Assembly (NCBI GenBank): GCA_043754535.1
Contig: JAYUUN010000084.1
Location: forward strand, 1 to 64,000
Direction of reading: 5' to 3'
Origin: Chloroflexota bacterium
GTDB lineage: Bacteria > Chloroflexota > Chloroflexia > QHBQ01
DNA length: 64,000 nt
Under the pieces are notes generated by a model. It was not told the origin of the DNA. It did not search any database and saw only the letters and a program-made list of their open reading frames with translations. Position numbers and translations under genes: made by a program. Positions 13,980 to 24,388 of this stretch are shown piece after piece; position 1 is the stretch's first letter, and each line of letters opens with the position of its first letter.

Positions 13980-16124
13980 CTACTGCACTGTGGCCCAGTC
14001 CACCGCTACGCCCAGCTTGCGCGGGTCTTGGGGGCTGGCTGGTTGAGCGTCGGTTTGTAGGGTGATGATGTTAACGTTGGCAGCGCGGTTGGCAGCGAAA
14101 GTAAGTAGCTGCCAGTCGAGAGTCAGTCGGTAGTCGCCCACTGGCTGACCGTTGACCCTGATGCTGACTCGCTGCTGCTCGCGGCTGGCCCGTAGCTGCA
14201 AGGCTATCTGCCCGCCCTGGCCCGCTAGCCTCAGACTGGCCTGCTCTTTGCTCCAGCGGTATGTCACATTGCTCGCCTGCTCCGGCTCGTAGAAGCCGTC
14301 CAGGTTGCCATAGTCAGCTACGCCCACATCCAACCTGGTCGGTGCATCGCCGAGGTGCTGCCAGGCCCACGCCTGCGCCGCCGCCCGCTGCTTGGGGGTG
14401 ATGGTGGCGAAGGTTTGTTGGGCGGCGGTAGTGTCGCCCTGCGCCCTCTGCGCTGCGCCCAGGCTGAGGATCGCGGGCCAGTAGAGGCGGTCGGCCTCTA
14501 CCCCCTTCGCGTACTGCGCCGCCGCATCGTTCAGCTTGCCTAGCCCACGCAAGGTATCGCCCAGGCTCACGTACCAGTCAGCGGCATCGTACTTCGCCAC
14601 CGCCTGCTGCAAGAGGTTGACCCGCTCGCCCCCACTCGCCAGCCCCGCCCGCAGCCGCAGGTAGGCCGCCTGCCAACCGCTGCCGTAAGCGGGCAATTCG
14701 CCCCACGAACTAAAAAGCAGGAAGGCGATTGCCAGCAGCGCGAGCAGTTTGGCGCGCAGTCTGGCGGGTGCAGCGGCTTGACCCAGGGCAGGTTGGTCGC
14801 GCTGCCGTAGCCTGCGCCACCCTGCTACCAGCCAACCGCCAAACTCTAGCAGGGCATAGCCCGCCCAGGGTGCGAAAAGTACCAGGAAGGGCAGCAGGTA
14901 GCGGTACTCTGGGTGGGCCAGGGTGGTCAACAGGGTGTTGACCAGAGCAATGAGCAGCAGCAGTCCCTTTGCCGCCGCCTCACCTCGCGCCAGAGCCAGA
15001 CCCACCACTGCCAGGGCGAAAAAGAGCAGGTGGTAGAGACCCGCTGCCAGGCTGTAGCTCAGTTCGGCGGTGCCGCTGCTGCCAGGATACTTGTCGTGCA
15101 GCACAACCACGTACTCGCTGAAGCGGTCAACCTTCCAGGTATCTACTACGCGGGCGGTGGCGTTGGCAAGGAAGCGGGGCGGATCAGCCAGGATCGCCGC
15201 CAGGCCCGCACTCCCGGCGTAGCTTGCCCGCGCGGCCAGGTTGGGAATGCGGCCAAGCTGCTCCATCGTCGTCTTGCGCGGGAGGGTGCCATTATCTATG
15301 TAGAGGTTGATCTGCCCGGTCGTATCGATCAGGATCAACTGACCATAGGTTGCCAGGTTCCGCCCACTCCACGGTAGGATCAGGGCCAGCACGATAGCGG
15401 TGTAGATTGCCAACCGCACGAGACTGCGCCGCCAATCGGCCCGCTTGGTTAGCCAGAGTAGCCAAAACCAGAGTGCGGGCAGGAAGAAGAAGACTAGCGA
15501 ACGGGTAAGAGCCGCGCCCGCAAAGGTCAACGCGGAGAAGACGAACGCAGCACTCAAGTGAGGACGCACCTGCTCATCGGCCAGTGGCAAGAACGCCCGC
15601 AGCGTGAGATAGAACCAGGCGAGGGTAAGCAGCACGTATAGTTGCTCGCTCATGTACATATTGGTAAAGAAGACAAGCACCGGGCTGGCAGCCACCAGCA
15701 AGGCCGCTATTCCTCCTACTGCTGCCCGCGCTGGAAACAGCAAGCGAGCCAGCAGGTAGACCAGCCAGATGGTCAGCAGCCCCAGCAGCACTTGGCTGAG
15801 GCCGAGGGCCAGCAGGTTGCCGTCGCCATCCTTGCCAAAGAGGGCGAACACGCCCGTGCTGTAGAAGATGTAGCCGGGTGGTCGCAACCAGAGCCAGCGG
15901 TCGGGCAGGCCGCCACCGTTCGCCAGCGAGAGCGCACTGCCGAGGTAGTTACCCTCGTCGCGGATGAAGGGCGTACCCGTAGCCTGCCCATGCAGCAGCA
16001 ACAGCAGGCGCAGGCCGCCGCCCAGCAGCAGGGCGAAGCTGAGGCTGAGGCTAGCAGTTTTATTGGTAGAACGTGTAGGTTGGCTCACAGGCAGCAGGGT
16101 ATCATGTAGCCAGAACGCTGTCAA
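13980..16124 (-). CDS. GT-C/ArnT-like membrane glycosyltransferase with C-terminal TPR and beta domains
   Basis: RDEGNY...RPPGY, SEQLY and PWSGRN motifs, many TM segments, TPR-like helices. Confidence 0.8.
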   Translation of the reverse strand: MTAFWLHDTLLPVSQPTRSTNKTASLSLSFALLLGGGLRLLLLLHGQATGTPFIRDEGNYLGSALSLANGGGLPDRWLWLRPPGYIFYSTGVFALFGKDGDGNLLALGLSQVLLGLLTIWLVYLLARLLFPARAAVGGIAALLVAASPVLVFFTNMYMSEQLYVLLTLAWFYLTLRAFLPLADEQVRPHLSAAFVFSALTFAGAALTRSLVFFFLPALWFWLLWLTKRADWRRSLVRLAIYTAIVLALILPWSGRNLATYGQLILIDTTGQINLYIDNGTLPRKTTMEQLGRIPNLAARASYAGSAGLAAILADPPRFLANATARVVDTWKVDRFSEYVVVLHDKYPGSSGTAELSYSLAAGLYHLLFFALAVVGLALARGEAAAKGLLLLIALVNTLLTTLAHPEYRYLLPFLVLFAPWAGYALLEFGGWLVAGWRRLRQRDQPALGQAAAPARLRAKLLALLAIAFLLFSSWGELPAYGSGWQAAYLRLRAGLASGGERVNLLQQAVAKYDAADWYVSLGDTLRGLGKLNDAAAQYAKGVEADRLYWPAILSLGAAQRAQGDTTAAQQTFATITPKQRAAAQAWAWQHLGDAPTRLDVGVADYGNLDGFYEPEQASNVTYRWSKEQASLRLAGQGGQIALQLRASREQQRVSIRVNGQPVGDYRLTLDWQLLTFAANRAANVNIITLQTDAQPASPQDPRKLGVAVDWATVQ

Positions 16125-17028: not shown

Positions 17029-19371
17029 TCAGGGGTTTTGTAGCCGCTGGCGCAGGGCGGAATAGCGGTCTGCCGAGCGGTCGTTACGAACGGCAAGGGC
17101 GATTGCGTCGCGGGTGCCGACCAGGACGACCAGCTTGCGCGCGCGGCTAATCGCGGTGTAGAGTAGATTGCGGGCTAGCATACGCTGGTGCGCCAGGGTG
17201 ACAGGCAGCACCACCACCGGGTACTCACTGCCTTGCGCCTTGTGGACGGAGATCGCGTAGGCATGGGCCAGTTCGTCCAGTTCGCCGAAGGCATAGCTGG
17301 CGGAGAGTTCGGTGTCGAACAGCACCCGCACGCTCTGCTCAAGCGGGTCGATTTGCACTATGCGGCCAATGTCACCATTGAACACCTTCTTGTCATAGTC
17401 GTTGGTCGCCTGCATCACCTTGTCGCCCTCGCGGAAGATGCGGTCACCATAGCGGTGTTCGGCCTTGCCCGCAGCGGGTGGATTGAGTACCTCTTGCAGG
17501 CGCACGTTGAGGGCGGCCACCCCCACCGGCCCAGCGTGCATGGGCGATAGTACCTGAATATCGTCGAGCGGCTGGAAGCGAAACTTGCGCGGGATACGAG
17601 TGCTGACCAGTTCGGCAATCAGGTCGGGCGAGTCTTGCAGCGGGGCGTTGACGAAGAAGAAGTCGCTATCCGGGTTGGCGTTGGCGATTACTGGCATCTC
17701 GCCCGCGTTAATCAGGTGAGCGTTGGCGATGATTGCGCTGGCTTCGGCCTGGCGGAAGACCTGCTCCAGGCGCACTATTGGCACCGCCCCACTCTCAATC
17801 ACGTCGCGCAGGACATCACCCGGCCCTACCGGCGGCAACTGGTCAGCGTCGCCAACGAGGACGAGGTGGGAGCCGGGTGGCACTGCCTTGAGCAGGGCAT
17901 AGGTGAGCGGCAAGTCCATCATCGAAGCCTCATCAATGATGATTACGTCGGCATCAAGCGGGCTGCTGCCGCTAAACTCCATGCCACCGCCCGGCTTCAA
18001 CTCTAGCAGGCGGTGGATGGTGCTGGCGGGTGCGCCGGTCGCTTCGGTCAGGCGGCGGGCGGCGCGGCCAGTGGGGGCAGCCAGGATTACGCTGTTGCCC
18101 TTCGTCTGCAACAACTCAATGATCGCCCGCAGCGTCGTCGTCTTACCCGTCCCCGGCCCGCCAGTCAGCACCATCAGCGGGCTGGTCAGGGCCAGCTTCA
18201 CAGCATCCTGCTGCTGTTCGCTGAGGTCGAGCGTCGTCCGCATCCGCAGGTAGTCGTGGGCCTTCTCCCAGTTGAACAGGCGGAAGCGGGCTAGCCGATC
18301 ATCCTTCGCCTGCATCACGCGGTGCAGCAGGGCGGCCACTCCTACCTCGGCATGGTAGAGGTAGAGCGGATAAACTACCTGCTGCTCGGCAACGCGGTCA
18401 AGCTTGACCGCCTCGCCCTCCATCTGCTCCTCAAGTACGCTAGCCAGACGGTTGGGGCCAATATTGAGCAAGCCCTCGCCAGCCTCAAGCAGGTCGCGCA
18501 GGGGCATGAAGGCGTGGCCGCCCTCGCTGTGGCTAGCTAGCAGGTGGATTAGCCCGGCGGCAATGCGCTCGTCGCTGCTGCGGGTCAGGCCCAGGCCAGT
18601 CGCCATGCGGTCTACGGTGGCGAAGTCGGCCCCGTAGACGCTGGTGATTAGCCGATAGGGGTGGTTGCGGAGGACATCAAGCGACTGCTCTCCATAGTGG
18701 CGGTAGATGCGGAGGGCCAGCGAGACGTTCATCTGCTGGGTTTGCAAGAACTGCATCAACTCCTTAATCGTGCGCTGCTCTTGCCAGGCGGCGACGATAG
18801 CAGCGGCGCGGCGGGGGCCGAGGTGTGGCACCTCACGCAGGCGGGCTGGTTCGCGGGCCAGAACCTCCAGGGTTTGCAGGCCGAAGTGGTTGACGATTTG
18901 CTCGGCGATGCCCGGTCCTACCCCACGTAGGAGGCCGCCGCCCAGGTACTTCTTGATTGTACTCAAGGTAGCGGGCGGAGCGACCTGGTAGCGTTCGACG
19001 GTAAACTGGCGGCCATACTGGGGGTGCAGCAGCCACTTGCCTTCAAGGCGCAAAGCTTCACCGGGGATGATGCCGGGCAGGTAGCCGACAATTACCTGAG
19101 GCTTGCGTTTGCCGACCACGTGCAGGCGGGCTATCGTGTAGCCGTTCTCCTCGTTGGCGTAGCTGACACGCTCTAGCGTTCCCTCAAGGGTCACTGTGCT
19201 GGTCAGTTCGATGTTGCCGCCGCTGGGCTTGCCGGTGGGATTGCGCGCATCGTAGCTAGGAGCGGTAGCGAGCGCAGCAGGCAGCGGCTCTAGCTCCTTG
19301 TGCTTGCGCGGCAGGGCAGGGCGGGGAGAAGGGTAGGCAGCCCGGTAATTGTCTTCTTCCAATCGGTTCAT
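17029..19371 (-). CDS. recD2: ATP-dependent RecD2-like DNA helicase
   Basis: HPQYGRQF, HhH repeats, TGGPGTGKT, IDEASM, GDADQL, GDKVMQ, HKAQGSE and LLYTAISRA motifs. Confidence 0.95.
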   Translation of the reverse strand: MNRLEEDNYRAAYPSPRPALPRKHKELEPLPAALATAPSYDARNPTGKPSGGNIELTSTVTLEGTLERVSYANEENGYTIARLHVVGKRKPQVIVGYLPGIIPGEALRLEGKWLLHPQYGRQFTVERYQVAPPATLSTIKKYLGGGLLRGVGPGIAEQIVNHFGLQTLEVLAREPARLREVPHLGPRRAAAIVAAWQEQRTIKELMQFLQTQQMNVSLALRIYRHYGEQSLDVLRNHPYRLITSVYGADFATVDRMATGLGLTRSSDERIAAGLIHLLASHSEGGHAFMPLRDLLEAGEGLLNIGPNRLASVLEEQMEGEAVKLDRVAEQQVVYPLYLYHAEVGVAALLHRVMQAKDDRLARFRLFNWEKAHDYLRMRTTLDLSEQQQDAVKLALTSPLMVLTGGPGTGKTTTLRAIIELLQTKGNSVILAAPTGRAARRLTEATGAPASTIHRLLELKPGGGMEFSGSSPLDADVIIIDEASMMDLPLTYALLKAVPPGSHLVLVGDADQLPPVGPGDVLRDVIESGAVPIVRLEQVFRQAEASAIIANAHLINAGEMPVIANANPDSDFFFVNAPLQDSPDLIAELVSTRIPRKFRFQPLDDIQVLSPMHAGPVGVAALNVRLQEVLNPPAAGKAEHRYGDRIFREGDKVMQATNDYDKKVFNGDIGRIVQIDPLEQSVRVLFDTELSASYAFGELDELAHAYAISVHKAQGSEYPVVVLPVTLAHQRMLARNLLYTAISRARKLVVLVGTRDAIALAVRNDRSADRYSALRQRLQNP

Positions 19372-19482
19372 CTTTATCTTCTAACTCTGCATAAGGTTGG
19401 CTGGCCGCTTACGCTCGCGGGTCTATGCTGCAAACAGGTTGGGCTGGGGACGCAGGTATGCTGCGCCCCCACCAGGCTGCGG

Positions 19483-19902
19483 CTAGAAGGGTAGCTCCTC
19501 AGCCTCCATCTCGTCGTCGGCTCCAGCTCCCACCCCTGCCAACACCTGGCTGCCGTTGCTGCCGCCTGGCTTGCCGCCCAGCATGGTCATCTGGCCCGCG
19601 ACCACCTCTGTCTTGTACCGCTTCTGGCCGCTCTGGTCTTCCCAGGAGCGGGTTTGCAGCCGCCCCTCTATGTAGACCAACTGGCCCTTGACCAGGTACT
19701 GGTTGCAGCGGTCAGCCAGCTTGTCCCAGGCAACTATGTTGTGCCACTCGGTCTCCTCGCGGCCCTGGCTGCCCTCGCCGCCTATGTAGCGGTCGGTTGC
19801 CAGACTGAAGCTGGCGACCGCCGTCCCTGCCTGGGTGTAGCGCAGTTCGACGCTGCCCCCGACCCGCCCAATCAACATGACCTTATTCATAGTCCCAGCC
19901 AT
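19483..19902 (-). CDS. ssb: Single-stranded DNA-binding protein
   Basis: NKVMLIGR, ETEWHNIV, KGQLVYIEGRLQTRSW and an acidic EELPF tail. Confidence 0.97.
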   Translation of the reverse strand: MAGTMNKVMLIGRVGGSVELRYTQAGTAVASFSLATDRYIGGEGSQGREETEWHNIVAWDKLADRCNQYLVKGQLVYIEGRLQTRSWEDQSGQKRYKTEVVAGQMTMLGGKPGGSNGSQVLAGVGAGADDEMEAEELPF

Positions 19903-20027
19903 CTTAACATACTTCCTTTCTAAACTCTAGTCGCTCTAATTGTGGGTGACGGTTGAGCCGCTGCGCCTGGTGCTGTCTTTGCCCTGGGGCTGGCAGCAGC
20001 GGTAGGTGATGAGGTGGAACGAGGGCA

Positions 20028-20879
20028 TTACTGATTTGCGGCGCGGCGGCTGTTGGCGGCTGCATTGCTGATCGGCGGTGAGCCAGGACGGGTGGCGCGG
20101 ATGTTGGTTACCTTGCTGGGGGCGGCTGGCTCTGGGCTGGCAGGCTGCTCTGGGGTGGGCGCAGCTTCGGGCTGACGGGCAGACCGCTGCTCGCTAGCTA
20201 GCTGGGGGGCAGTCGGGTTGGCTGGGCGCGGAGCTGGCTGTGGGGCTGGCTGGCGTTCGCCACGCTCCTGGTCACGAGCCTCTAGCCGCTCGCGCAACTC
20301 GCGGGTCTTCTCGGCGACGATGCGGTTGTAGTTAATCAAGTCATACGCTGCCACGTAGTCGCGGGTGACCAACATTGCCTTCATCAAGTCGCTCTCTGGG
20401 ATACGCATCTGCACCCGACTGGTCGGCTCACCAGCAGGCTGGATTGCCCCATTCTGGGTTGCCTTGCCAGGGCCGTTGGCAATGGTCAGGCGGTAGGGGT
20501 AGCGGGCGAACTTGCCCCCCTGGTCGTCATACTCGATCATTAGGGTACGGCTCTCTATCGTACCATCCTGCTTGCTACTGCCGCCGAACCGCTCGAAGCG
20601 GCCTGCCACCTGGGTGGGGGCGCAGATTACCTCGCGGAACAGGCGATTGGTGACCAAGTGGACGAGCAGCTTGAGGTCGTCGCTATCCAACCAGGCCGAG
20701 GCGATACCGGTCTGCCGCCCTGACTCCTGGTCGTAGCTGGCTAGCTCGATTTTGACCTTGTTGATGCGGAGCGCGTCGTAGATGTTGAGGAAGTTCTTGT
20801 TCGTCGCGTAGACGTAAATCTCGACCGGCGGCTTGGGGCGGTCAGCGGGCCGCTGTTCGGGGCGTTGCTCTTGGCTCAT
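20028..20879 (-). CDS. Hypothetical protein, predicted Whirly/PC4-like beta4-alpha repeat with a Pro-rich tail
   Basis: Long ORF with typical codon usage between the SWIM gene and ssb; fold call is an inference. Confidence 0.75.
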   Translation of the reverse strand: MSQEQRPEQRPADRPKPPVEIYVYATNKNFLNIYDALRINKVKIELASYDQESGRQTGIASAWLDSDDLKLLVHLVTNRLFREVICAPTQVAGRFERFGGSSKQDGTIESRTLMIEYDDQGGKFARYPYRLTIANGPGKATQNGAIQPAGEPTSRVQMRIPESDLMKAMLVTRDYVAAYDLINYNRIVAEKTRELRERLEARDQERGERQPAPQPAPRPANPTAPQLASEQRSARQPEAAPTPEQPASPEPAAPSKVTNIRATRPGSPPISNAAANSRRAANQ

Positions 20880-20962
20880 CTTTTTGCTCTTTCGTTCTCT
20901 CAGGTGGTGGGGCAGCCCCAACACGCGGATTGTGCGCGGCGGCTGCCTTCAGCGTGGCTGGC

Positions 20963-21190
20963 TCAGGCGGCAATGAAGCCACAATCGCGCAGGGCGATGA
21001 TGTGTTGGCACTCGGCTGGCTGTCCCGCCTTGCTGCCTGCGCCACAGGTGCAACTTGGCTGTGGGCTACCAGTCAGCACCACGCGGTAGCTGCGTTGGCC
21101 GCCCTGCTGCACCGTATAGGTGCCACCCTGCCCATAAATGCGTGTCCAGGCTGGGCGATGCTTGGGCTGGTCTGCTGCTTGCTTGCTCAT
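20963..21190 (-). CDS. Small SWIM zinc-finger protein
   Basis: YRVVL...SCTC-x10-CQH; GAGGAG RBS. Confidence 0.8.
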   Translation of the reverse strand: MSKQAADQPKHRPAWTRIYGQGGTYTVQQGGQRSYRVVLTGSPQPSCTCGAGSKAGQPAECQHIIALRDCGFIAA

Positions 21191-21210
21191 CACAATCTCC
21201 TCTCTGCGTA

Positions 21211-21222
21211 GAACTGCTGTTC
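21211..21222. promoter_or_regulatory. LexA (Cheo-type) box 2, in the 5' UTR
   Basis: GAAC-TGCT-GTTC matches GAAC-N4-GTTC. Confidence 0.85.
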
Positions 21223-21234
21223 TAACCTGGGTTA

Positions 21235-21263
21235 ATTGTATCATAGAACGCTTGTTCTGTCAA
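21235..21263 (-). promoter_or_regulatory. Near-consensus sigma70 promoter with LexA box 1 in the spacer
   Basis: Minus strand TTGACA-17 bp-TACAAT with an extended TG; the spacer contains GAAC-N4-GTTC at 21246-21257. Confidence 0.9.
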
Positions 21264-21361: not shown

Positions 21362-21390
21362 ACCCAGCCCTCCTGTGCTGGGGGCTGGGT
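21362..21390 (-). terminator. Probable terminator after the GAPDH-like gene
   Basis: acccagccc/gggctgggt stem with a T-rich tail on the minus strand. Confidence 0.55.
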
Positions 21391-22825: not shown

Positions 22826-24388
22826 TCACTGCTCCCCTTGCAACAGCACTGCTGCCGAGGGTGCAGCACTCAGCCTGTTCCCCTGCCAGCGCAAATAGAG
22901 GTCGCGCCCAGCAGTGGGATTGGGTTGCTCAATCGCTGCATCGAACAGCTTCTGCTCAAACAGGCGGTAGTAGACCGCCATGCTGCGGTAGGGGTCTACC
23001 CTATCTGGCGCGCCATACCACATCCGCGCCGCCCAGTGCAGCCCCTCGTTCCAGACGCTGGCCCGCTGGTAGGTGAAGGGTGGGCCGACGAAGAACAGGC
23101 GGTCGTTCGGCTGTACGTCCGGGTAGGTCTGCTTCAGTTGTACCAGCAAGCTGCGGGTTTGTTCGCCTGCCACCCGCCACTCATCGTTGTGCGCCATCGT
23201 CCCCCAGCCGCCAAGCGCAACCAGCAGCATGATAGGCACGGCAACCAGGCTGGCTGCCAGCCACTGCTTCAGCCCCAGAGCAAAGACCGCGACCGCGAGA
23301 CGTGCCACCGCTGCGCCCAGCATAATCGCCAGCCCCACACTGGGCAGATAGACATAGCGGGTGGCCTGGTCGAAAATCGGGATGCTAACCACCGGCGCAA
23401 GGCTGACTAGCAGCCAGAGCAGCCCAAACCAGCCGATGCGCCCACCATACCAGGCCAGTGCAGCGAACGCCACCAGCCCGCCCACCAGGAACAGATTGGC
23501 CGCCCCCCCACGCAACCCCGTCACGCTAGGCAGCCCCACAACCATGCCAATATAGCCCGCGATATTGTCGAGCAAGGGCTGGCCGAGCTTAGGGGTCGAG
23601 CCATAGCCCATCATCAGGATGCGCTGGCTTTGCAGCCAGAGCCGCAGCAGCAGATAGCCGCCGCCGAGCAGCACGAACGGCCCATGCAGCCGCAACTTCG
23701 CCAACAGCCAGCCGCCAAAGTCGCGGGCGCGCAACTCAGGCTGGTCGAAGCAGAGCAAGTCGGCCAGGAACAGCACCGCGAACGAGGTCAGCCCCATCTC
23801 CTTCGCCAGGATACCGAGGATAAGGAACAGCGCGGTCAAGCCATACAGCCACCAGCGCGGCGCACGACGGTAGCTCACGAAGGAGACCACGCAGGCCAGA
23901 TAGAACAGGCCGGTTAGGGAGTCGAAGCGGCCATCCACCCAGGTTACTGCGCCCGGATGAGCAGGCAGCACGGCAAACGTTACCGCCGCTACCCCCGCCG
24001 CCAACACCCCCTGCTCCCGTGCGGGAGAATGCTCGGCTGGGGGGACTAGACCCAGCAGCAGCCGCCAGACCAGGGCGGCACAGCCGCAGTTGAGCAGCAC
24101 GTTCTCCAACCGCCAGGCCGCCGGGTTGAACCAGCCCCATAGCTTGTAATCCAGCACGAAACTAAGCCAGGTGAGGGGCCGATAGAAGCCGCCCCCGCGC
24201 CGCAGGTTGAAGAAGTTAGCCACCTGCGCCCAGCCCTTCGGCAGCGCGAAGTTGTAGTCGTCGGCCACCCACCAGTAGCCGAGCGTCGGCAGGTAGAGCG
24301 CGAGGGTGAGGCCCACCGCCAGCGCGAGAGCCAGCCACTTCAGGTTTCGCAGCCGCTGAGCTGGCGCAGGAGGGCGGTTGGTGGTCAC
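22826..24388 (-). CDS. GT-C-type multi-TM glycosyltransferase (TMTC/PMT-like)
   Basis: ADDY, FYRPL, HPGAVTWVDGRFD, AKE and RYVYLPS motifs. Confidence 0.8.
   Translation of the reverse strand: MTTNRPPAPAQRLRNLKWLALALAVGLTLALYLPTLGYWWVADDYNFALPKGWAQVANFFNLRRGGGFYRPLTWLSFVLDYKLWGWFNPAAWRLENVLLNCGCAALVWRLLLGLVPPAEHSPAREQGVLAAGVAAVTFAVLPAHPGAVTWVDGRFDSLTGLFYLACVVSFVSYRRAPRWWLYGLTALFLILGILAKEMGLTSFAVLFLADLLCFDQPELRARDFGGWLLAKLRLHGPFVLLGGGYLLLRLWLQSQRILMMGYGSTPKLGQPLLDNIAGYIGMVVGLPSVTGLRGGAANLFLVGGLVAFAALAWYGGRIGWFGLLWLLVSLAPVVSIPIFDQATRYVYLPSVGLAIMLGAAVARLAVAVFALGLKQWLAASLVAVPIMLLVALGGWGTMAHNDEWRVAGEQTRSLLVQLKQTYPDVQPNDRLFFVGPPFTYQRASVWNEGLHWAARMWYGAPDRVDPYRSMAVYYRLFEQKLFDAAIEQPNPTAGRDLYLRWQGNRLSAAPSAAVLLQGEQ

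Follow-up and report, generated by a model that had tools for sequence, protein, structure and literature searches.

In Bacillus subtilis and Mycobacterium tuberculosis the LexA motif is reported to be GAAC-N4-GTTC, and in Escherichia coli the gene encoding SSB, a protein that binds single-stranded DNA, is reported to be SOS-regulated (PMC3323433). RecD2 of B. subtilis is described as binding both SsbA and RecA and as limiting RecA filaments (PMC8989531). Whirly tetramers are described as binding single-stranded DNA (ssDNA) and preventing spurious annealing after breaks, and the same source places Whirlies mainly in plants (PMC3245945); plant papers describe them as plant-specific, and the prokaryotic and phage cases of the fold that we found reported are domains within the defence proteins Shedu and Menshen and an RNA-binding protein of a jumbo phage. 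The PC4-like type I fold is reported as binding nucleic acids that are single-stranded, both RNA and ssDNA (PMC7549692). Outside the model phyla, the prediction of SOS regulons has mostly started from lists of established repair genes. Here we describe four co-oriented genes on the minus strand of a 64-kb stretch of DNA, hereafter the window, from a Chloroflexia genome (contig C84 of genome G000; 3.87 Mb, 61% G+C, 89% complete). The genes encode, in series, a small SWIM-like protein, a 283-residue protein of predicted Whirly fold, an SSB and the helicase RecD2, and they probably form a conserved operon, predicted to be LexA-repressed and likely damage-induced, whose products would coat and process ssDNA.

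An earlier note on this DNA had placed the four genes behind a TTGACA-17-TACAAT promoter accompanied by two perfect GAAC-N4-GTTC palindromes; both the promoter, which matches 11 of 12 consensus positions, and the two palindromes are present as described (Table 1), the second palindrome lying 12 nucleotides (nt) past the -10 hexamer. These are the only two GAAC-N4-GTTC sites in the 64-kb window. Shuffled windows were expected to hold 0.50 sites, and two or more were found anywhere in the window in 8 of 100 shuffles, so that the window by itself is weak evidence, and chance is excluded because the boxes recur in related loci. Since the promoter carries two conserved LexA boxes, LexA control is strongly predicted, and we infer that the operon is LexA-repressed and likely damage-induced. 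In the whole 3.87-Mb genome GAAC-N4-GTTC occurs 34 times, versus 95 times for the reversed control pattern, and the operator sequence looks to be avoided genome-wide outside regulatory sites. The LexA protein of Dehalococcoides (Chloroflexi) is reported to use GAAC-N4-GTTC as well.

The earlier note had also proposed a search of related genomes for the gene neighbourhood and for upstream LexA boxes, and both proved to be retained. The box survey covered 36 related loci from species-representative genomes (289,689 nt), the relatives being Chloroflexia metagenome-assembled genomes. Within these loci, 30 of the 33 perfect boxes lie within 410 nt upstream of the cassette (150-560 nt before the gene for the 283-residue protein). 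An upstream box is perfect in 29 of the 36 loci, at the position that box 2 takes here, and has at most one mismatch in 34, while 28 loci carry at least two boxes; the two box-free loci are one contig end and one stray paralog. These tallies, like those below on the aligned promoters, the SWIM-like motif, gene order, distribution within the class, SSB tips and ssb-recD2 spacing, include four unpublished genomes (G007, G012, G015 and G034), and the key counts and the weight matrix described below were redone without them: 26 of 29 perfect boxes then lie just upstream of the cassette, and of the 32 loci 25 have a perfect box, 30 a box with at most one mismatch and 24 at least two boxes. The conclusions drawn from these sequences do not depend on the four unpublished genomes. 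When the promoters of about 35 loci are aligned, a common plan appears: TTGACw, 3-5 nt, AGAAC-N4-GTGC overlapping TATAAT, 0-8 nt, GAACA-N3-GTTC, a ribosome-binding site and ATG. The spacer box thus overlaps the -10 element in most relatives, and the two-operator layout is retained though the proteins share only 46-65% identity.

The genome encodes one lexA gene (C28:28998-29639; TIGR00498, 166.7 bits against a cut-off of 110.95), whose own promoter follows the same plan as that of the operon, with TTGACA, a perfect box in the spacer, TACAAT and a box with one mismatch after the -10 element. The recA promoter has a box with one mismatch directly after its -10 element. A strict GAAC-N4-GTTC search was tried as a regulon finder and was set aside; a matrix was required because the perfect motif alone missed recA and the uvr genes. 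The weight matrix was built from 46-50 boxes of relatives only, with the genus of this genome excluded, and was used to scan the whole 3.87-Mb genome. Box 1 of the operon scores 22.0-22.2 (rank 2) and box 2 21.2-21.7 (rank 4-5), with recA at 20.0-20.2 (rank 6) and lexA at 18.8 (rank 9), and the ranks of recA and lexA are unchanged when the unpublished genomes are omitted. Other matrix sites lie just before the genes for an SOS-response-associated peptidase (SRAP), radA, uvrC, uvrB, an AlkZ-related gene, mutL, gyrB and two FtsK-like genes. The best matrix site of the genome (22.7-22.9; C97:6986) lies about 110 nt before a gene for an 837-residue Ser/Thr protein kinase with a PQQ-like propeller. 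Elsewhere in the genome, outside the window, two more perfect GAAC-N4-GTTC boxes stand 57 nt from each other at C48:19057-19125, between open reading frames (ORFs) of 274 codons on the minus strand and 112 codons on the plus strand, neither with a Pfam family; this pair may mark another unnamed SOS unit.

All statements on distribution refer to the sampled genomes. Of 41 related genomes, 38 carry the Whirly-like gene, and the order Whirly-like, SSB, RecD2 is present in every locus of sufficient length; the SWIM-unknown-SSB-RecD2 arrangement is retained across the order. The genes flanking the cassette are common only to a same-genus genome, which argues that the cassette is retained as a unit and not by general synteny. 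In our genome's own order (families f1-f3) the Whirly-like family is found in 36 of 38 genomes, and it recurs in family f11 (7/7 genomes) and was seen in none of 105 genomes sampled from other families of the class. All seven f11 genomes (L116-L122) encode a Whirly-like homologue of 199-206 residues directly before an SSB gene, behind a TTGACA-17-TATGCT/TATAAT promoter with a one-mismatch box after it, such as AGAACAAATGTAC; near this pair there is no SWIM-like gene and no RecD2 gene, recD2 being located elsewhere. In the f11 genomes, which are 99-100% complete and may derive from cultured strains, there are also four to five SSB paralogs, and additional copies of the Whirly-like gene lie in different surroundings. 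In other Chloroflexia families, 18 RecD2 loci were examined, and none of the other three cassette genes (for the SSB, SWIM-like and Whirly-like proteins) lies within 1.5 kb; the presence of RecD2 in the cassette is therefore specific to this order. In family f6, five of eight recD2 genes (L124, L125, L148, L150 and L151) have a GAAC-N4-[AT]TTC site, with one mismatch, 20-95 nt before the start, and recD2 of that family may, from these sites, be under SOS control without the cassette.

The second gene of the operon encodes what the earlier note had called an uncharacterised protein, a description that holds in that no family was found for it in Pfam (E <= 0.01), NCBIfam, PHROG or PADLOC; its predicted fold, that of single-strand nucleic-acid binders, also fits the role in ssDNA processing that had been suggested for it. 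Among the 120 matches listed of 191, every homologue with a name is a 'hypothetical protein', and Pfam domains are absent throughout; in a set of 50 homologues the Whirly-like domain was not covered by any Pfam family at E <= 0.001, and a profile search of 1.84 billion representatives returned 254 clusters at E <= 0.001. An AlphaFold2 model of residues 15-215, made with 109 aligned homologues, has a mean predicted local distance difference test score (pLDDT) of 95.3 and a predicted template modelling (pTM) score of 0.87; a first model, built with 15 close sequences, reached only a pLDDT of 64.7 but gave the same structural matches. The topology is beta4-alpha, beta4-alpha and then an additional long helix, with strands at model positions 6-11, 15-22, 27-36 and 41-51 and a helix at 52-63 in the first half, and strands at 80-88, 94-103, 115-126 and 140-146 and a helix at 148-168 in the second. 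In a structure search other than Foldseek, the top match was the potato Whirly StWhy2 (Z 13.2, 142 of 161 residues, root-mean-square deviation 4.0), followed by PBF-2 p24 (Z 12.4), the trypanosome proteins MRP1/2 (Z 11.7) and Pur-alpha (Z 6.5), with all others at 5.8 or below. Among the best Foldseek rows, only PURA, Whirly and MRP chains appear (probability 0.96-1.00), PURA being matched at E 5.9e-5 (probability 1.00) and PURA and WHY1 together spanning 6e-5 to 6e-4. A Whirly/PC4-like type I fold is thus predicted with high confidence for the 283-residue protein. Beyond the folded core lies a C-terminal tail of about 70 residues, rich in Pro, Ala and Gln and modelled with low confidence. In most relatives the last residues of the orthologues' tail (window 20028-20240 in our sequence) form a short basic tip with the pattern R-x-x-[TAS]-R-[ATV]-G, and in our genome's own genus the tail ends in ...RRAANQ; by analogy with the tip of SSB, the basic tip may be a docking motif.

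The promoter-proximal gene encodes the 75-residue protein that the earlier note had called a SWIM zinc finger. The zinc-finger motif itself stands up: across 13 orthologues there is no variation at C47, C49, C61, H63, C70, G71 or F72, and in 34 of 36 loci the Whirly-like gene has an ORF with CxC..CxH ahead of it. The family assignment does not stand in full, and we use the label 'SWIM-like' because the CxCxnCxH signature is present but the score falls under the Pfam gathering cut-off. Fingers of this kind also occur joined to the Whirly-like domain. Among ten longer homologues examined, four have an N-terminal CxC..CxH finger fused to it: P0079, in which the finger is a Pfam SWIM match at 19.9 bits (cut-off 19.6), and P0007, P0010 and P0071, with P0010 encoded by a Chloroflexota genome of another family. 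Other architectures were seen among the distant homologues. P0140, P0071 and P0129 have an N-terminal DnaA_N-like domain fused to the Whirly-like domain, P0079 and P0007 have C-terminal repeats with faint similarity to GemA/DUF3072, and in P0092 the Whirly-like domain is duplicated in tandem.

The SSB of the operon is, by sequence, a second paralog, the housekeeping copy being elsewhere: the other SSB of the genome (175 residues, ending in ...DIPF) lies within rpsF-ssb-rpsR on contig C48, and the three relatives that were checked have two SSBs apiece, one of them in the cassette. An acidic stretch and a [LIM]PF end are found in 30 of 31 operon SSBs of relatives. The RecD2 match to TIGR01448 covers positions 1-713 of 713, making it a full-length equivalog, with the domains OB_YrrC, HHH_RecD2, AAA_30, SH3_13 and UvrD_C_2, and it is the sole match above cut-off in the genome, in single copy. 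PADLOC offered only generic RecD-like helicase models for this protein (best 282.9 bits, versus 823.8 for the RecD2 equivalog), and that reading was rejected.

Table 1. Features of the four-gene locus and its edges, in window coordinates.
Feature	Position	Strand	Basis or remark
-35 hexamer TTGACA	21258..21263	-	Promoter scan; TTGAC[A/T] retained in relatives' aligned promoters
Predicted LexA box 1 (coding strand: GAACAAGCGTTC), within the spacer beside the -35 hexamer	21246..21257		Perfect GAAC-N4-GTTC
-10 hexamer TACAAT, with TG upstream	21235..21240	-	Promoter scan
Predicted LexA box 2 (coding strand: GAACAGCAGTTC), covering the predicted start of transcription	21211..21222		Perfect GAAC-N4-GTTC
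SWIM-like zinc-finger gene, 75 residues; CxC-x11-CxH, then LRxCGF	20963..21190	-	ORF; GGAG 8 nt before ATG
Gene for the 283-residue protein of predicted Whirly/PC4-like fold	20028..20879	-	Folded core at about 18-210, then Pro/Ala/Gln-rich tail
SSB paralog gene, 139 residues; acidic ...EELPF tip	19483..19902	-	PF00436, E 3.9e-39, 133.3 bits
GC-rich hairpin between ssb and recD2	~19446..19470	-	11-bp stem, no U-tract
RecD2 gene, 780 residues; SF1B 5'-3' helicase	17029..19371	-	TIGR01448, 823.8 bits against a cut-off of 500
Terminator-like hairpin and T-run closing the preceding oxidoreductase gene; upstream edge of the unit	21363..21382	-	Terminator scan
Next promoter-like site, past RecD2 and ahead of a GNAT gene	16985-16958	-	Promoter scan

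From these parts a course of events can be proposed. While cells are undamaged, the spacer box and the start-site box would be occupied by LexA dimers that block RNA polymerase; upon damage, RecA filaments on the resulting ssDNA would trigger self-cleavage of LexA and free the promoter. The additional SSB would then raise the capacity for coating ssDNA, and its acidic ...LPF tip may recruit RecD2, as that of B. subtilis SsbA does, with RecD2, moving 5'-3' on ssDNA, clearing or remodelling RecA filaments and protein obstacles. By analogy with the plant Whirlies, the Whirly-fold protein would bind ssDNA non-specifically and block annealing of resected or gapped strands at microhomologies, and the SWIM-like protein may be its zinc-dependent partner or regulator. 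We tentatively go a step further, to a proposal that we hold possible and still doubtful: that this family acts as a bacterial Whirly-type guardian of ssDNA, in which the Whirly-fold protein, its SWIM partner, an SSB deployed only in the SOS response and RecD2 would together form a damage-induced system that shields resected or gapped DNA from microhomology mis-annealing, the task that Whirlies carry out in chloroplasts and mitochondria, the fold being of prokaryotic or phage ancestry and not plant-specific.

Several observations weigh against a LexA-controlled Whirly-type operon and have to be set beside the alternatives. The relation to the Whirlies comes from the predicted fold alone: the 283-residue protein has no match to Pfam Whirly (PF08536) and no KGKAAL string, and the profile of its 109 homologues finds no PDB chain below E 0.43. 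Because the structure matches come without any sequence-level link, we regard it as a separate family of the same fold. Pfam SWIM (PF04434) scores 15.3 bits on the 75-residue protein against a cut-off of 19.6 (E 0.014), and just three of its 13 orthologues match at E <= 1. Comparison by hhalign of the free finger's profile with the fused N-termini is weak (E 0.0033 at a probability of 9.7%, and E 0.16), and a common origin of free and fused fingers is suggested by motif and position only. Several of the top matrix sites precede genes with no obvious tie to repair (a Ser/Thr kinase, ftsK, murT). No RNA dataset containing the 4.4-kb stretch of the operon was found; the DNA contigs that contain it come from sediment, glacier and freshwater metagenomes only. 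That the palindromes are chance occurrences or the sites of another regulator, leaving the operon constitutive, nevertheless seems to us extremely improbable: such pairs do arise somewhere in shuffled windows, as noted above, but the positions are retained in about 30 diverged promoters, the same motif stands at lexA and recA, and the matrix recovers repair genes. The fold raises a different doubt, since it also binds RNA, as in PUR and MRP1/2 (reported for the fold in PMC7549692), and the best Foldseek E-values are to PURA repeats I-II, and MRP1/2 matches at a Z-score of 11.7. The protein might on that account act on RNA or as a transcription factor in the style of PUR-alpha, Bpur or MRP1/2, for example in tuning expression under stress, with no part in the handling of damaged DNA. 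We think this improbable, as the gene lies next to that of an SSB in each of two families, and to RecD2 in its own order, the predicted operators are SOS operators and the top Z-scores belong to the plant Whirlies, which bind ssDNA.

The extent of the transcript bears on the reading as a single operon. LexA may control only the first two genes, with ssb and recD2 transcribed from promoters of their own and the hairpin after ssb acting as a terminator, which would make the four genes neighbours and not one damage-inducible unit; this we consider unlikely, though there are points in its favour. The gaps between the four genes are 83, 125 and 111 nt, the ssb-recD2 interval folds into a stable hairpin (-46.9 kcal/mol, z = -3.4), four relatives (L039, L040, L051 and L061) hold 0.6-1.6 kb of additional DNA between ssb and recD2, and recD2 of f11 stands apart from the SSB gene; with such gaps and such a hairpin, read-through into recD2 is a presumption. 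Against separate units, neither a promoter-like nor a terminator-like site was found by the scans on the minus strand between 21235 and 16985. The GC hairpin that the earlier note had pointed to as a possible end of transcription is real, but it has no U-tract and was not reported by the terminator scan. In most relatives, moreover, recD2 starts at or close to the stop of ssb, and the gene order is retained despite differing flanks. The unit might also have come from elsewhere, as a domesticated replication, recombination or anti-phage module of a phage or mobile element, with a Whirly-like sensor or ssDNA binder, an SSB and a helicase kept under LexA as prophage genes often are, and serving ends other than host DNA repair. 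A mobile origin is possible because the family is patchy in the phylum (9 of 301 genomes in a phylum-wide sample, namely our own, the seven of f11 and one of f33) and because the nearest Atlas clusters by features (0.92-0.93), a lead only, consist of hypothetical proteins, with viruses making up 57-100% of the taxa where these are known, and in one cluster 13% of the members carry Pfam Whirly. To this can be added the distant homologues with GemA/DUF3072-like repeats or DnaA_N-like domains, the additional f11 copies, whose surroundings differ and whose contigs vary in G+C content, and the reported Whirly-fold domains of the Shedu and Menshen proteins and of the jumbo-phage protein. We nevertheless judge such a module decidedly unlikely. 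The cassette is near-universal within the order and holds the genome's only RecD2, operators of its type also stand before recA, lexA, uvrB and uvrC, and the window contains no integrase or other phage gene around it. Searches likewise gave no support: PHROG and PADLOC hold no family for the SWIM-like, Whirly-like or SSB protein, and tblastn of the Whirly-like core and of the distant homologue P0059 against 50,697 phage records returned no match.

The region around the operon is flanked by genes for large multi-pass membrane proteins of 714 residues (13980-16124) and 520 residues (22826-24388). By eye these look glycosyltransferase- or PMT-like; they are unrelated to the operon and are common only to the same-genus genome.

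In the literature searched, neither this operon nor an SOS-regulated Whirly-fold protein nor a 'bacterial Whirly' was found described; the earlier note, too, did not recognise the arrangement as a described operon. New, then, are an SOS operon, as predicted here, built around a new Whirly-fold family, its second SSB paralog, and the fusions of SWIM and Whirly-like domains. Among the strongest predicted operators of this Chloroflexia genome are those ahead of two proteins without a family name, and the matrix sites together give a predicted SOS regulon for an uncultured order that includes recA, lexA, uvrB, uvrC, radA, SRAP, the AlkZ-related gene and mutL. Plant Whirlies have been linked to the suppression of microhomology-mediated rearrangements; if the same were true of the bacterial protein, it would offer a simple prokaryotic system in which to study Whirly activity. 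It would also account for a second SSB and a RecD2 under common control, and the small SWIM-like proteins would gain a partner that can be tested.

Among described systems, the closest in regulation is the Gram-positive-type SOS regulon (LexA/DinR and the Cheo box of B. subtilis, and M. tuberculosis), with which the locus shares the operator motif, the placing of boxes over spacer and start, a lexA gene with boxes of its own, and boxes at recA, uvrB and uvrC in the same genome; this operon is in none of the described regulons that we found, and after the site of one kinase gene its two boxes are the strongest predicted intergenic operators of the genome. The plant Whirlies (WHY1/2/3, PBF-2 p24; PF08536) have the same predicted beta4-alpha-beta4-alpha fold, and for the bacterial protein a link to damage is suggested by its genomic context. 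It differs from them in showing no detectable sequence similarity, in lacking KGKAAL, in its added long helix and 70-residue disordered tail, and in having its gene beside an SSB gene, with a gene for a SWIM-like partner. PUR-alpha, bacterial Bpur and MRP1/MRP2 (PC4-like type I domains) are of the same fold class, but they act mainly on RNA or on specific repeats, in transcription or RNA editing, and none is known to be encoded beside an SSB or a helicase, or under LexA. Like this genome, B. subtilis has two SSB paralogs, SsbA and SsbB, with one in rpsF-ssb-rpsR; its SsbB is competence-induced, not SOS-induced. In the divergent uvrA-ssb pair of E. coli, an SSB gene is reported to have a LexA site, as here (PMC3323433). 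The present case differs from both in that the copy predicted to be LexA-controlled is a dedicated second paralog within a four-gene cassette. RecD2 (YrrC) of B. subtilis and Deinococcus has the same domain set, ours being a full-length equivalog, and is described as a partner of the SSB tail and a modulator of RecA (PMC8989531); in the present genome, unlike in those bacteria, recD2 comes directly after an SSB gene and behind predicted SOS operators.

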